This document shows positions 24,470-35,628 of a stretch of 64,000 nt of DNA, one piece after another. The translations under genes and the position numbers were made by a program. The stretch comes from Moniliella sp. 'wahieum'. Its lineage: Eukaryota. Position 1 is the stretch's first letter; each line of letters opens with the position of its first letter. Where the stretch lies: the NCBI GenBank assembly GCA_003971905.1, contig RSEE01000122.1, positions 1 to 64,000 on the forward strand, written 5' to 3'. The notes beneath the pieces were generated by a model. It worked only from the letters and a program-made list of their open reading frames with translations. It was not told where the DNA came from and ran no database searches.

Positions 24470-25026
24470 CTTTCCCTTGCGCACTTTGTACCCCTCTACC
24501 CTCTGTTTTCTCGTGCACATGCCCCGCAACATGTCCAGCTAACTCTCTCGGTCTGGTATGCGTGCCGTTACCTGTTAGGAAGAACTATCACCTACGGCCT
24601 ATGATAGAAGTAGGAAGCCGATCGGAACGAGGAGAGGACAGTACCTTACAGCATATACTCAGAGTAATCCATTGCACCCTTTTTTCCAGCTGGGTAATCA
24701 TCTCCCCTTCCTTCCCCCCTGCCTATTGATTGGCCTGTATTAATGGTGGCCATTTCGACGGTTCTCTCGACTCGCTTCTTAGCCCACGAGCTCATGGATC
24801 CGTTTTTCTTCTACACATGTGCCGTGTACCTAACAACTAGCCTACGCACTACGCACCGCATATGCTCATCGGTGAGACTCAGCTCGCCCAATCGTCGCCC
24901 AATTCGTCCGGCCCTCCCGGTTCGCCCGTTTGCCCGGTTTGTCCATTCGGCTGAGCCACGCTCCACGCGTTTACACATTATGCGTTACGCCCACAGAGCG
25001 CCGAGCCTTTCCTGTCGCCTTGGTGT

Positions 25027-25050
25027 TCAACGTTCAACGTTCAACGTTCA
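25027..25050. repeat. Heptamer array (TCA-ACGT)x3-TCA
   Basis: Read directly. Confidence 0.9.
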
Positions 25051-26153
25051 TACCCACAAGGAAATGTGCCAACGTGAGCTTACAAAAGAGAGTGGAGTAG
25101 GTCTATAACTGTCAATGATGCAGTCCCTTTTCCCCTTTTCCGCGTGCAGTCAGTCGGTGGTGCACGCATGGCTGCCAAGACGTGTCACATGATGTGTATG
25201 ATGCTTGAAGCTTGACATGACATATGACAGGAGACTGCCTCGTGGCTGAACAAGGAAGAGTGTCCTGAGTTGTATTACCGAATCTCGTAGTGCGGACGAG
25301 GGAGAACAGGGGGGGGGTCACCTGGGGTAACTCTGTAAAGAGTGTCCTGGGCAGAAAGGAGAAAACCCTGTGTGACATGGAACAGGTACCGGTAAAGCTC
25401 TGCTGCCCCACCGGCCACCCCTCCCCGAGACGCACGCTGCGTTCAGGAATATGTAGCAGGTACCCGGGGTACCGCACTACCCGTACCGGCCCTGCACCGA
25501 TGCCGAGGCGGTCGAGCAGGGCACGAAATAGACGCGTTCCGTTGTCATCAACTGTATGTATACCTTGCAAGAAGCCACACAAGGCCACACACACTACTGG
25601 CACTCCAACAAAAACGAATCGGGTCTTGGGCCCGTTGATTGATCATAGATTATCTCGATCGTCCCCATCGTCGTTACGCGAGTTACATACTCATCGTTGG
25701 CATATTATAGTGGCGAATAGTCAAGATCAAGACAAGGCCGGGGAATGTCAGGGAGGAACAAGACGGAGGGTACGGAACAAATGACCAAAAACGAGAGAGG
25801 AAAACGCGAAAAAGGGAAGAGCAAGTTGCCAAACCGGTCACAGTACTCGAGTACTCATTGAGGGCTCTCTTCCAGCGTTCAGCACGTTCAGCCAACTCCT
25901 ATGATAAAATGCTCAGCGCTCACACACCCGCGCAGTTCGAACAATCCCATTCCACAACCACCCGCTGCCATATTTCTCCGGGCGAGTGGCAAAAAAGGGC
26001 CAGATTGCAGCATTAGATCATGCATCGTGCGAGACCGTCCCATGCACAGATCACAATACATCATGTGTATATCCCACGAGCCGTGCCTCTTCTTAGTCTG
26101 TTGGTGCGCAACTGTGTATATGATCTGATCTAAGACTCCTGTGAGCGCGCGCC

Positions 26154-31323: not shown

Positions 31324-33770
31324 ATGAACACCAGCCCTCCTCGTGCTGGCGCAGCTGCCGCCTCCTCCGGTGCGTCCAACAGCCCCCGAACCCCAACGCT
31401 TCCAGCCTCAACCCCTCTGCCTCCTTCTCCGCCCCCTTTGGTCCCTGGCCCCCCCAGCCCTGGTCCTCTGCCGATCCCTCCACCGTGGGCCCAAGCCCCC
31501 CCCCCGCCTCCTTCCGTCCTGCACCAGTCTCCGTCCCCCCTGCCGGCGCGCCTGGCATGTGGGACATCCGCTCTTGGTCCGACACGTTCCCGTCTGCCTC
31601 GGCTGCCCCTCCCTCGCGCCCTGTTCCTCGCCCCGAAGCAACCAGCCCAGACGCCATGCACGGTCTACTGCCCACCCCACAACAGTCCTCCGTCAACCCC
31701 CACCTACCTCTCCTCCCTTCTCTCTGCGCCGTATGATCCCTCGCCCAACGTAACCGACCCTTCCCTCCTCCCCGATCCGGGACAGACCCCGCCGCTGCAG
31801 CGCCACATGTCCATGGCCAGCACGGCTCAAACTTCCAAACCCACCTCTCGCTCTGGCGAGTTTCTCCTTGACCCCTCCTACCTCCCCTACCAGCGGCCCT
31901 TTTCCTTCCCAAAAGCCCCCGCCCCCATCTATGGGATCCTTCACCTTCGACACATCTGCCTTTGGTCCAGCTGGCTTTGGCGCCTTCCCTCCTCCCCCTC
32001 AGCCTGCTGCCGCGTCCCAAACGTCGTCGTCGCAATGGCCGCCACCGCAAGCGCAGGTGCCAACAATGGGCCAATCTCGATGGCCGATTTGCCGACGGGG
32101 ATGCAGGGTCGCTTGCGCTCGGTTCTGGGCCCCTCTCATCGTCGCGGCACACTGGGCGCTATGCCACAGTGGTCCAAGCCTGCTTCCGACGGGTTTGACC
32201 CTTCGATCGGCCGGCTTGCCGAGTACCCCTCGGCGCCCCTTTGGCCCGGCTCTCCCTCACAGCCGTCGGTGCCAGCGAACGAGTCGGATTCAACGTCGCG
32301 AACGCCTTCCTTCCAAATCACCGCCTCGGGTGGCGTAGTCAAGGGCGCAACGTTCCTCTCTCGCAACGTGCTTCCTCCCTCGGCGTTGGGCGGGCACGCG
32401 GCTTCCCATCCTCCTGGCTTGGGCGCCCGCGTCCTTCGTCCCGATTCGGCTATGGGCAGTGGAATCAGTATGGCGGCCTGCATGGCCGTACCGAGTTGCA
32501 GTCCATGGCGTATGGCGGCGCGGCAACGGCCGCTGCCGCGACGGAATTTACTAAACGCAAAGGATGGCCGCTGCGCGTGGTAGAGGAGTTGATTGATTTT
32601 GTTCATGTTCTCGATCCTAAGGGTACCATCCTCTTTGCCTCGCCTAGCATTGTCGACTTGACCGGGTGGAAGCCCGAGGAAGTCAAAGGTCAAAAGTTGG
32701 TCGATGTACGTGCCTGTCCCTTTCATCTTACCGTGTCTCCCCTTGTACCGTATTACGTGAGGAGCAGAGTGGCTGATCGTTTCTTCTTTTTTTTCTTTTT
32801 GCTTGCTCTTTGACGTAGTTTGTCCATCCTGATGACGTGCAAGCGGTGCGAGAGCATCTCGACCCCGCCATCCAAGTGCCGGGGGCGGATGATTATGTAC
32901 ATGCGGTTCCGGTGCAAGCCCGAGAAGAGCAAGAAAGCTGGGCGAGAGGGGGATACGTCTTCCGTCGGCGATTCCTCTTCTACACCTTCCTCTACCAGCG
33001 AGGCGGGAAAACGGGGCAACAAGCGGAGACCGCGGGCCTGACTCAGGTCGGCCGCGTCATGGCCAACAATGTGCCTTATGTGGTGTTTGAGTTTACGGGT
33101 CATCCTTACTTTCCTCCTGCTGAGTTTGCTCAGTTGGCCAAGGAGCGTGCGCAGCGGCATGCGGCCAAGAAGAACGCGTCTCCGCGTACGGCCAAAGCGG
33201 CCTCGCTGCCGCTAACCCTTCCATCGAGAACACAAGCACCAGACGGCAATGAGAATGACAACCCTGAAGAGAATGCGTTGCAATGTTTCTTTTGTTCCTC
33301 TCGTGTCCATCCCACGCCCAACATTTCCATCCTCGACTCGTTCCTGGAGCTCAAGGTGGAAAATGAACGGTTGCGGTTGATGCTGCAGAAACTGAATATG
33401 GAGGAAGAGGCTGAGCTGCCTTCGTCCAACGCTGCTGCTCGATCGCCTCGTCTGCCCACGCGAACCGACGCGAGCGAGGAAGACCATAAGAACAAGAAGA
33501 AGAAATCACGCCCGACGAAGGCGACCACGTCTGTGCCGATTGTGGTCGGGTGGACTCGCCCGAGTGGCGCAAAGGTCCCCTCGGACCCAAACGCTGTGCA
33601 ACGCATGCGGATTGCGCTGGGCCAAACGCATCAAACGCCATGGCGGCGATCCCAACGCTGCCGCCATCGCTTTTCATCAACAAGCTTCCGCCGCAGCACA
33701 ACAAGCCGCTGCAGCTCCCACCGCTACTCCTTCCTTCCCCTCCAACCCGGGTATGGGCTTCCACCCCTAA
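31324..33770 (+). CDS. wc-2: White collar-2-like PAS + GATA zinc-finger transcription factor; intron ~32706-32818; frameshifted
   Basis: EFTKRKGWPLRVVEELIDFVHVL..ILFASPS..LTGWKPEE|FVHPDD (PAS); LDSFLELKVENERLR (coiled coil); [31 protein letters not shown] (GATA finger). Confidence 0.9.
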
Positions 33771-35628
33771 CCGGCCTGCCCCCCTTCCCTGTCCTGTTTC
33801 CCCCCCTCGTTTCCCCCGTTTTCCTCGTTTCCTCGTTTCCCTCGCTTTCATCGTTTCCCTCGTTTCCCTGCTCGCCCGACCCTATCTATCTGCGGCCACG
33901 CATTCGCTCCCTTCCCTCCGTGCTCTTTTTTTCTTCCCCTTTCCCCTCACCTCGCTCCCTGTCCACCCCCCTCCCCCGCGCCCCGCTGTCTGCCCCCCCC
34001 CCCCCCCCCCCGTCACTTTGACTGTTTCCCCTCGCGCTTGCTACGGTATGAGAGGCGGCGCTGTCCTGCCTCACCCCCCTCGCCCTTCACCCTCGTCTTT
34101 CACCCTCGTCTTTCACCCCTCCACTTACCTCTGAACTCTCGTCTCCCGCCAACGTCTCCAATCCGTATACTTGTACCGACCCCTGGCACTGGCAATGGCA
34201 CTGATACTGAGTACCGAGTAATACTGAAACTGAACACTGAGCGCACTGAGATCTGAGAGCACTTCACTGAACTCTGGACCCTGAACCCTGAGGCCTGAGG
34301 TTAGTCTAAGCCCTGAACCTTGAGCCCTACTCCACTCCCTCTCCTTGTCCGGGTAGGGGTAGTGATGCACGAGGATCGATGAGCGCTCAGGCGCTCAGGG
34401 CTCATGCCTGCCTCAGGGCTCAGGCTGAGCAGCGAAAGGCAGGGCAAGGCAGGGTCGGGTCTGGTCTGTGATAGATGATAGAAGACGGATGATTCGATGA
34501 TAGAAGATGGGAGATAGAAGATCATTAGGAGAGGCTACAACGCCCTCCCCCGCTGCACAGATAGTGCCCCCGCACTGCACCTTGAAGTCTCCCATTTTGT
34601 TCCCTTTGGGGGGGCATTGCGGTTTGCAGAGAGGGATACGGAGATGCGTACTTCATGAAGATAAAGACCGGCCTGAAGCTGCTGAAGCGTCAAGCGTAAG
34701 GCCTGAGATGGAAAGGAAACTAACTGCGTAAGAGTTCTGAGCCTGAGCGCTGAGCCCACTCTGACGTGCACCTCGTTTGTTCATGCATCGTGCAGCAGTG
34801 CATTGAACATCGAACGTTGACTTGCCGGGGGGCGATGTATGAGTTATGAATCATTGGCCCGGCACGGGCCCGTCTCTATTCTCCCCTGACATATGTGCAT
34901 GACGAGGGCCCTTGGGAGGTATATATATGGCTCCCTGGGTCGATCGCGTCGCGATCTTGCCCGAGTCAATATAGTCACTATATATGGTCACTAGTAATTA
35001 GTCACTAGGTACGGGCCCTCGCAGCAACGTCCGAAACCTTCGATCGCGGATCTCGCGGGAGGATCCGACTAGGTGCCGCAGAGTGACTAAGTATAGTAGT
35101 GACTATAATACCTTGAACCTTGGGGTGCCGTTTGGCGTACATATTGAGCAACCACGGCTTTTCACGCCACGGTTGGAGGTGTGGCCTGCGTCTGTCAGAT
35201 GTAGAGGCGAACGGTAGGACTCTAGGATCTATAAGGTCGAACCGGGTCTAAGATCTAAGATCTAGCCCCACCTCAGGCCTTTATTACCCCCGCATATCTA
35301 CATTTTTCGACAGATGAGGTCCCGAGACATCTCTCAGAAAGTCATCGATCTCATCGATCACATCTGGGGCCCACGAGATGCTTTACTTAATGACAAAAAA
35401 GCTATTCAAGTATTCCAGCTTCAAGAAAGAGATATGCTTCAAGTTCTGGAGATCAGATGATTAAGATGTTTGAAAAAGGGGCGGTGATTGGTGAGCAAAG
35501 AAAGTATCAGCTAGTAGTAGAGGAGAGGAAGAGGAGAGAGGAGGCCCGGGGAAAGAACGGGGGCTAGCAAGGGTGAAAATATGAATAGTGAGTCATTTGG
35601 TGAAGCGCGAAAAAGCTTGGCGCTTGAA

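Follow-up and report, generated by a model that had tools for sequence, protein, structure and literature searches.

Non-coding DNA in a 64,000-nucleotide stretch of the Moniliella sp. 'wahieum' genome (assembly GCA_003971905.1, contig RSEE01000122.1, positions 1 to 64,000, forward strand; this whole stretch is called the window below) carries many short tandem arrays of a 7-bp unit that have symmetry and period in common rather than a sequence. The unit is most simply described as an odd palindrome of the form N2'N1'-T-S-A-N1N2, where S is C or G, repeated in tandem. This pattern is real and lies far from chance expectation, although all counts and statistics given here rest on this one 64-kb window of a single assembly. 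Among the explanations considered, the one we tentatively prefer is that the arrays are a lineage-specific mutational signature, in which units able to form hairpins are expanded by slippage or template switching and then decay.

An earlier note on this DNA, made from the sequence alone, had described the repeat as TNA followed by a variable 4-bp palindrome, and had proposed that its members share symmetry plus period instead of one sequence. The unit so described is present at all 19 coordinates that the note had named, as found by reading the sequence directly, and its proposal is borne out by the statistics both of TNA-N4-TNA matches and of period-7 arrays. For example, 61 of the 145 TNA-N4-TNA matches in the window have a palindromic core, compared with 4.7 +/- 1.9 (maximum 10) in order-3 and 8.6 +/- 3.3 (maximum 19) in order-5 Markov sequences (100 simulations per order); since about 68 matches in all are found in simulated sequence, most of the total excess consists of those with palindromic cores. 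Likewise, the unit contains a 6-bp palindrome in 22 of the 39 period-7 arrays that have two or more exact copies, when 11.3% would be expected from 100,000 random 7-mers of the same composition (binomial p=1.1e-11), and simulations (100 each at Markov orders 3 and 5) contain a mean of 0.5 and a maximum of 2 palindromic period-7 arrays. Hexamer palindromes of the form A....T recur at distances of 7, 14 and 21 bp in 19, 8 and 8 pairs, respectively, and the same distance count gave no 7-bp periodicity for C....G, G....C or T....A hexamer palindromes. Chance or base composition is excluded as an explanation by the Markov simulations of both orders and by the random-unit null. A general richness in palindromes was also considered and rejected: even palindromes in DNA outside open reading frames (ORFs) are only mildly elevated (19 versus 11.5 with an arm of 5, 6 versus 3.3 with an arm of 6), and the clear palindrome excess there is of odd palindromes with an arm of 6 (13 versus 2.65 expected), which are the arrays themselves.

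Two odd-palindrome units meet in the 6-bp A....T palindrome, and the unit is equally a hexamer plus one spacer base. The pair that flanks the centre is T...A in 20 of 22 palindromic arrays (p=1e-10 versus 25%), and the centre base is C or G in 18 of the 20 A....T arrays (C in 11, G in 7, T in 1 and A in 1). Spacers of 0, 1, 2, 3, 4 and 5 nucleotides (nt) precede an identical A....T hexamer in 0, 14, 1, 1, 0 and 0 cases, so the spacer is exactly 1 nt. Odd palindromes account for 47 of 280 TCA-centred and 48 of 280 TGA-centred 7-mers in non-ORF DNA (17%), compared with 5-10% for other centres in non-ORF DNA (TAA, 15%) and 8% for TCA and TGA in ORF DNA. The only symmetric heptamer with a different centre (A-G-T) is TTAGTAA, present twice at 29498-29511, which we take to equal a Yap1-type bZIP site.

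Symmetry of this kind is tied to a period of 7. There are 20 period-7 duplications in non-ORF DNA against 0.73 in simulations, and 14 of these 20 are maximally self-complementary (null 10.4%), whereas there is little or no symmetry at other periods (7 of 29 at period 5, null 27.7%; none of 12 fully symmetric at period 6; 4 of 10 at the 2-mismatch level at period 8, null 21.8%). The two longer symmetric arrays are built in the same way, namely ATGCGCAT plus G with a period of 9 (27387) and AGCGCGCGCT plus C with a period of 11 (8472).

In total, 42 independent loci use 14 of the 16 possible palindromic 4-mer cores (Table 1 gives coordinates). TGCA and CCGG are found at 5 loci each, ACGT, AGCT, GGCC, GATC and TCGA at 4 each, CGCG at 3, GTAC, GCGC and CTAG at 2 each, and TTAA, CATG and ATAT at 1 each; AATT and TATA do not occur among the 42 loci. 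That 14 cores are each used at 1 to 5 loci implies no single binding specificity. Arrays contain 1.4 to 6.7 head-to-tail copies (at most 3.9 when exact and 6.7 when imperfect), and exact period-7 runs are most often 12-13 nt long (18 of 42 loci), with 16-27 nt at 15 of 42. Adjacent units can differ and still be symmetric, in five pairs when read in the hexamer phase (such as AGGCCT-G-AAGCTT and ACTAGT-C-ACGCGT) and in three in the odd phase (such as GTTCAAC-ATTCAAT). The spacer mostly stays constant along a chain (29 the same, 2 C/G flips, 2 other changes), and flips are common within degenerate clusters. The inverted form, TSA-N4-TS'A, is rarer, with 6 perfect palindromes versus 42 direct loci. 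The possibility that array ends are fixed at T-S-A was rejected, because 25 of 42 loci begin or end exactly there when about 21 are expected for such short lengths, a difference that is not significant.

Table 1. Coordinates of the period-7 arrays and related symmetric elements in the window, in order of position, with inverted forms last
Element	Position	Remark
AC-TGA-GTAC-TGA	7014..7025	
AA-TCA-TTAA-TCA	7977..7988	
TGA-TCGA/TCGG units	8121..8147	
C-TSA-G cluster with AGCGCGCGCT+C (period 11) and (ATCGAT+C) x2	8450..8530	
CGT-TGA-ACGT-TGA	8667..8679	
G-TAA-CCGG-TAA-CC	8900..8912	
T-TCA-AGCT-TCA	11096..11106	
(AGGCCT+G/C) x3.7	14570..14594	spacer flip
TC-TAA-GATC-TAA	15187..15198	
TCA-ACG(T) units	16722..16749	GTTCAAC then ATTCAAT
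(AACGTT+C) x3.7	25025..25050	folds: 5-bp stem and TCA triloop
AGGCCT-G then (AAGCTT+G) x3.9	26151..26207	compound, degenerate up to 26207
(ATGCAT+G)-type units alternating with CATGAGC	26815..26843	period 14; TGCA at 26815 and 26830
TGA-CATG-TGA	27292..27301	
ATGCGCAT+G leading into (ATGCAT+G) x2.4	27387..27430	first part period 9
TCA-TCGA-TCA-TC	27989..28000	
C-TCA-GTAC-TCA-G	28321..28332	
(ATGCAT+G) x2.7	29073..29091	
(ACCGGT+G) x2.1	29319..29333	
(ACGCGT+C) x2.6	29340..29357	
(ACCGGT+C) units with ACTAGG/AACTGG variants	29456..29491	
(TAATTA+G) x2 then TAA-CTAG-TAA	29498..29524	
GGCTACC x2.3 grading into (ACCGGT+T) x2.9	29549..29578	
(ACCGGT+G) x2.7	29646..29664	
(AATATT+G) x2 into (AACGTT+C) x2.9	29868..29910	spacer flip, G to C
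(ACTAGT+C) x2 then (ACGCGT+C) x2	30195..30225	single register
(AGATCT+C) x2.3	30240..30255	
TCA-TGCA heptamer within GTCATGCA array	30461..30499	heptamer at 30470-30483; array period 8
C-TGA-R cluster with TGA-GATC-TGA and (AGGCCT+G) x2	34246..34300	
C-TGA-GCGC-TGA-GC	34743..34755	
(AGATCT+A) x2.6	35247..35264	
TCA-TCGA-TC and TCA-TCGA-TCA	35342..35360	first part period 9
(AGGCCT+C) x2.4	43131..43147	~65 nt upstream of ATG 43065 (minus strand)
(ACGCGT+C) x2.7	51076..51094	123-141 bp upstream of MSH6 ATG (51217)
GGGTGA-CGCG-TCACCC (GGGTGACGCGTCACCC)	7834..7849	inverted; 16-bp perfect palindrome
TGA-ACGT-TCA	8796..8805	inverted
C-TCA-GCGC-TGA-G	8817..8828	inverted
TGA-AGCT-TCA	13847..13856	inverted
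TGA-GCGC-TCA	34380..34389	inverted

The arrays are spread over at least eight separate spacers, one of them the 189-bp gap between convergent ORFs at 16606-16794, with 24 of the 42 loci in a gene-poor stretch at 24.7-30.5 kb and 18 elsewhere. The statement of the earlier note that the pattern was not seen in exons broadly holds, since 31 of the 42 loci lie outside every ORF of 150 or more codons, measured from stop to stop; of the 11 loci within such ORFs, nine are in ORFs of the GC-poor stretch that lack a Pfam match or in the 5' or 3' flanks of genes, and the remaining two are at 7014 and 23404. When the sequence is split at each TCA or TGA, arrays are seen to be embedded in larger scrambled clusters in which T-S-A triplets lie 3-8 nt apart, and these clusters have their own dialects: G-TCA-C at ~29.2-29.7 and 30.2 kb, C-TGA-G at ~34.2-34.8, 8.4-8.5 and 14.6 kb, A-TGA-T/G at ~26.8-27.4 and 29.1 kb, and T-TCA-A at ~25.0, 29.8-29.9 and 16.7 kb. 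Arrays with periods of 8-11 are mostly a TSA plus a palindrome plus 0-2 extra bases. In addition, short tandem duplications of 6-13 bp are in excess across the non-coding DNA (10 versus 0.3 simulated at period 8, 7 versus 0.1 at period 9), and TCA or TGA occurs in 22 of 43 non-symmetric short duplications versus 11.1 expected (p=3e-4), six of these 43 entries being by-products of one (AAGAG)n microsatellite.

Several other origins were examined and set aside. A dispersed repeat or miniature inverted-repeat transposable element was rejected because no flanking sequence is shared beyond the arrays, and longer matches occur only between arrays (22 nt at 25023/29889 and 25 nt at 30203/51072). A larger foldback in 28950-30560 was rejected since only array-to-array matches were found there, such as those between ACCGGT arrays with opposite spacers. 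A known non-coding RNA was rejected on the basis of no Rfam matches at the gathering score and no tRNAs in the window.

The tentative preference for a hairpin-driven mutational origin comes from several features of the arrays: many cores are used about evenly, arrays decay to 8-11 bp variants, hairpins are predicted, and the window shows neither a transposon nor a dispersed family to which they could belong. It is also favored by the restriction of symmetry to period 7, the spacer of exactly 1 nt, the paired changes that keep units symmetric and the spacer flips. When seven palindromic arrays were folded, six were predicted to form a 5-bp stem with a 3-nt triloop and the other (29559-29578) a stem of equal length with a loop of 8 nt, with energies of -2 to -6.8 kcal/mol over the seven; no fold was predicted for two non-palindromic arrays. 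Under this proposal, the self-complementarity of a short unit would let a single strand fold, so that two adjoining units could pair as a 5-bp stem with a T-S-A triloop at its end, and this hairpin would stall or misalign replication, leading to units that are duplicated and then expanded via slippage or strand switching. The single C or G spacer and its occasional C-to-G flips would reflect events at a small hairpin's base, as in yeast, and substitutions plus indels of 1-2 nt would later erode arrays, yielding the variants of 8-11 bp and the scrambled clusters of TSA plus short palindrome. It may be that the few arrays with a genuine binding-site palindrome, for instance those of the MBF/MCB core ACGCGT upstream of MSH6, were co-opted. 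We infer every one of these steps; the direct results consist of the pattern, with its statistics and position, and of the folds predicted. Of the two interpretations put forward in the earlier note, the mutational one (hairpin or template-switch synthesis plus slippage) is thus the better fit as an inference, and the shape-read chromatin or regulatory code gained no direct support.

A precedent exists in yeast, where, in the portions of the report cited, Pol delta is stalled by inverted repeats only 4-6 nt long, Rev1 then inserts C at the base of the hairpin, synthesis changes over to the other strand, and hotspots of GC-to-CG change lie beside the hairpin (PMC3874155). As far as those portions go, this pathway is a precedent for a single C/G base between palindromes, for C/G flips, for double changes that preserve symmetry and for the lack of a preference in stem sequence (PMC3874155). 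In addition, the smallest stable DNA hairpin described in the passages cited, d(GCGNAGC), has 7 nt, with 2-3 pairs closing a loop of 1-3 nt (PMC13037366).

A number of observations weigh against this explanation. Hairpin potential alone explains neither why T...A flanks the spacer in 20 of 22 arrays nor why the spacer is C or G, and a 2-nt spacer should fold at least as well yet is unused. Stronger stems do not go with higher copy number, as the longest arrays are the AT-richer ones (AACGTT and AAGCTT), and two of the seven folded arrays do no better than shuffled sequences. Slippage leaves unexplained how a single copy first became two; the neutrality and instability of the arrays are assumed; the ACGCGT arrays are positioned where a functional site would be expected; and everything is drawn from a single 64-kb window, whose assembly carries one indel error or more. 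The strict requirement for T-S-A, which hairpins do not explain, leaves scope for a protein with sequence specificity, whether an enzyme or a binding protein.

If a protein read the arrays, they could be a cis-regulatory or chromatin code kept by selection, in which either dimeric factors bind the 6-bp palindromes or one factor reads TCA/TGA every 7 bp, and three 7-bp units do make 21 bp, or two helical turns. The best case for such a code, which we consider unlikely, is the (ACGCGT+C) x2.7 array and a third ACGCGT (51079, 51086 and 51111) no more than 141 bp upstream of the start of MSH6. This hexamer, the SBF/MBF core, is conserved in the basidiomycete Cryptococcus, where, in the part of the study cited, it is enriched in promoters of DNA-replication genes (PMC5137879). 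The arrangement that defines an MCB (SBF/MBF) element, ACGCGT upstream of a G1/S or DNA-metabolism gene, was found at this one locus, and ACGCGT is present 29 times in the window when 15.9 +/- 3.9 copies are expected. This array reads ACGCGTCA, which presumably fits the extended MCB consensus ACGCGTNA. Further points for a code are that the densest array region lies upstream of a gene for a PAS plus GATA regulator and that a 25-nt array stretch, AC[T/G]AGTCACGCGTCACGCGTCACTC, occurs twice with 96% identity (30203-30227 and 51072-51096). One copy of this stretch is ~1.1 kb upstream of the PAS plus GATA gene and the other 123-141 bp upstream of MSH6, so the shared sequence may be a common regulatory module or may come from convergent growth of arrays. 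However, a known site is matched only by the ACGCGT arrays (51076, 29340 and 30207), which are 3 of 42 loci, and the MCB/SBF-MBF sites say nothing about the other 13 cores. The about even use of 14 of 16 cores would demand many factors that share one T-S-A frame, a factor reading T-S-A alone would put no palindrome constraint on the cores, and the ratio of 42 direct to 6 inverted loci is the opposite of what a dimeric factor would prefer. Many arrays are also visibly decaying, and some lie outside promoters, between the convergent ORFs at 16606-16794 and downstream of the PAS plus GATA gene. Sites for bZIP proteins of the AP-1/Yap type have TGA or TTA half-sites that point towards a central C/G (TGA-S-TCA, TTA-S-TAA), and the half-units of the arrays, xxT-S-Axx, are reversed relative to these; a bZIP site of this type was therefore rejected, given the opposite polarity in 20 of 22 arrays and TTAGTAA x2 at 29498 as the single exception. 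An origin of the arrays in assembly or basecalling, with no counterpart in the DNA of the organism, is not plausible and was given very little weight: at least one 1-nt homopolymer frameshift, in the GATA finger, is typical of uncorrected long-read data, but indel and substitution errors cannot yield exact multi-copy palindromic heptamers of 14 kinds, and the arrays are confined to non-coding DNA, are nearly absent from equally sequenced coding DNA and show a decay that looks evolutionary.

The protein could instead be an enzyme, for instance a nickase, nuclease or transposase that recognizes symmetric T-S-A and leaves a duplication of 7 bp (sometimes 8-11 bp), which slippage merely expands, either by a staggered cut and fill-in (like a target-site duplication after excision) or by hairpin self-copying primed at a nick. 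We regard this proposal as improbable in that form, even though the very strong specificity for T...A and C/G and the presence of TCA/TGA in non-palindromic short duplications both resemble protein recognition, and the formula 'TSA + 4, 5, 6 or 8 nt palindrome (+0-2 nt) + TSA' looks like a duplicated target with filler. In structures of a 5+2 type, the 2-nt filler is the reverse complement of the adjoining repeat end in 11 of 34 cases versus about 4 expected, in the manner of P nucleotides; a 5-bp duplication plus 2 P nucleotides as the elementary event is suggestive and was rejected because it leaves the 13-nt forms unexplained and is not specific to T-S-A. Basidiomycete transposons with 7-bp target-site duplications are known, hAT7 and Kyakuja being those named in the excerpts cited (PMC12730594), and a polymerase plus a nickase can produce, in vitro, repeats of short palindromes in which the nick site is included (PMC10520511, section 4.7). 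Against this, a staggered cut copies any 7-mer and so would give no complementarity between the variable positions, although symmetry is present in 14 of 20 arrays, and filler derived from transposon ends would be constant instead of providing 14 different cores. To reach 3-7 copies, an array would have to be hit repeatedly or to undergo slippage afterwards, and scans of 76 ORF translations from this window found no transposase or mobile-element domain, nor is there any longer repeat around the arrays. The target consensus of hAT elements, nTnnnnAn, does not match a T at position 3 and an A at position 5. A transposon footprint was set aside for lack of a matching element family and of a constant end remnant in a search of the window. 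It is a somewhat less doubtful, if still unlikely, idea that an endogenous T-S-A-directed process, made up of a nickase, nuclease or domesticated or unrecognized transposase plus hairpin self-priming, writes self-complementary heptamers into non-coding DNA.

Comparison with other systems shows what sets these arrays apart. The 39 exact period-7 arrays consist, as microsatellites do, of a 1-10 bp unit copied exactly from head to tail, and the likeness to microsatellites or 'cryptic simplicity' extends to the short unit, low copy number, non-coding location and decay into scrambled motif clusters; however, microsatellites share a sequence, while the arrays share symmetry, a T-S-A centre and one period over 14 cores. 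The nearest mechanistic precedent, template switching by yeast Rev1/Pol zeta, is similar in its C at the hairpin base, its GC-to-CG changes and its copying of the opposite strand, but the portions of that work cited describe complex substitutions in a reporter gene, with no 7-bp tandem duplications and no T...A requirement reported there (PMC3874155). The tandem palindromes made by ab initio polymerase and nickase synthesis hold a nickase site much as the arrays hold T-S-A, although that system, as presented in the section cited, operates in vitro with bacterial enzymes, and no nickase was found in the fungal window (PMC10520511). Target-site duplications and footprints of DNA transposons such as hAT7 and Kyakuja are, in the cited excerpts, also short direct duplications of fixed length, sometimes with small palindromic filler (PMC12730594), whereas the window has no element, terminal inverted repeat or transposase, and the arrays have complementary variable positions and up to 6.7 copies. 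The d(GCGNAGC) mini-hairpins have the same 7-nt size as the array unit, but by the account in the cited passages their stability needs a G-N-A loop and G-C pairs, unlike the T-S-A loops here (PMC13037366).

Searches of openly accessible full-text literature yielded no description of the pattern, nor of the Ustilago maydis ATTCACG/ATTCGTG heptamers to which the earlier note had likened it. The nearest formal analogues are the heptanucleotide short tandemly repeated repetitive (STRR) sequences of cyanobacteria and the PstI-type palindromes of mitochondria, both of which, unlike the arrays, have a fixed sequence. The cyanobacterial STRRs are bacterial, tandem, intergenic 7-nt units that consist of a few fixed non-palindromic units in long arrays of unexplained origin, and a preprint reportedly treats the heptamer repeats of Nostoc. 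Neurospora PstI palindromes and yeast GC clusters are mitochondrial and place two hexamer palindromes around a very short spacer at scattered sites in non-coding DNA, with one fixed sequence, a 2-nt self-complementary spacer and mobility as a unit.

The window is nuclear DNA of a basidiomycete within the Ustilaginomycotina, to judge from the relatives of its MSH6. The MutS-family ORF at 51785-54712 has all five MutS domains and is 44-50% identical to MSH6 of Tranzscheliella, Testicularia, Ustilago, Thecaphora, Sporisorium, Malassezia and Tilletia, with one other record at 66%. This MSH6 begins at ATG 51217 with MGKQSSLFGFF, an N-terminus that we take to be PIP-box-like. A 12-nt repeat, CCAAGCCCACTC, is present at least five times in the MSH6 start region (51217-51530), and the longest perfect palindrome of the window, the 22-bp CGAGTCGGACGCGTCCGACTCG with ACGCGT at its centre, is at 51817-51838, inside MSH6 just past a likely intron.

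The array-rich stretch at 24.7-30.5 kb has ~52% GC, when coding parts have 58-70%, and no ORF inside it has a Pfam match; it is bordered on the left by a TRAPP-subunit gene (plus strand, to ~24.5 kb) and on the right by the PAS plus GATA-finger gene (plus strand, ~31.3-33.77 kb). The region at 33.8-37.1 kb is also non-coding and is followed by a formyltransferase/ACT gene. A 26-bp near-exact tandem duplication within the gene-poor stretch, ATATACCAAAAGAAGACCACGAAACC (27663-27712, 1.9 copies, 95% match), has no T-S-A and no symmetry, indicating that larger duplications occur in this region too. The GATA zinc finger of the PAS plus GATA gene, which is white-collar-2 (WC-2)-like, is divided over two reading frames (33523-33620) by a shift of 1 nt in an A run at ~33588-33592, which is either an assembly indel or else the mark of a pseudogene. 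Long C runs, whose length is error-prone in long-read assemblies, are found near gene ends at 33993-34011 (C19) and 23495-23521 (27 nt, 76% C). The ATCGAT+C arrays at 8121-8147, 8517-8530, 27989-28000 and 35342-35360, in several spacers, contain GATCGA/TCGATC, which we take to be the Neurospora white-collar-complex consensus; its occurrence in a window that also carries a WC-2-like gene is probably a coincidence. Other repeats in the window are an (AAGAG) microsatellite of ~17 copies with small interruptions (35629-35710) and a 21-bp unit of ~9 copies (41662-41913), apparently a coding minisatellite, within a minus-strand leucine-rich-repeat ORF.

If the pattern extends across the genome, it would constitute a rare class of repeats that is defined by symmetry and phase and not by sequence. 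Such a definition points to one specific causal event, be it copying triggered by hairpins or the action of a T-S-A-directed enzyme, that ordinary genetics could identify. Genome-wide arrays would also provide a natural read-out of how very small hairpins destabilize eukaryotic replication and a route for multiplying palindromic transcription-factor sites in promoters. Were a T-S-A-directed process responsible, its products would shape whole intergenic regions, seed palindromic sites such as MCB clusters and form a readable, lineage-specific mutator signature that has no described counterpart. The arrays should serve as highly polymorphic markers, and they warn that motif-finding and promoter-annotation pipelines will meet a strong non-functional background in these fungi.

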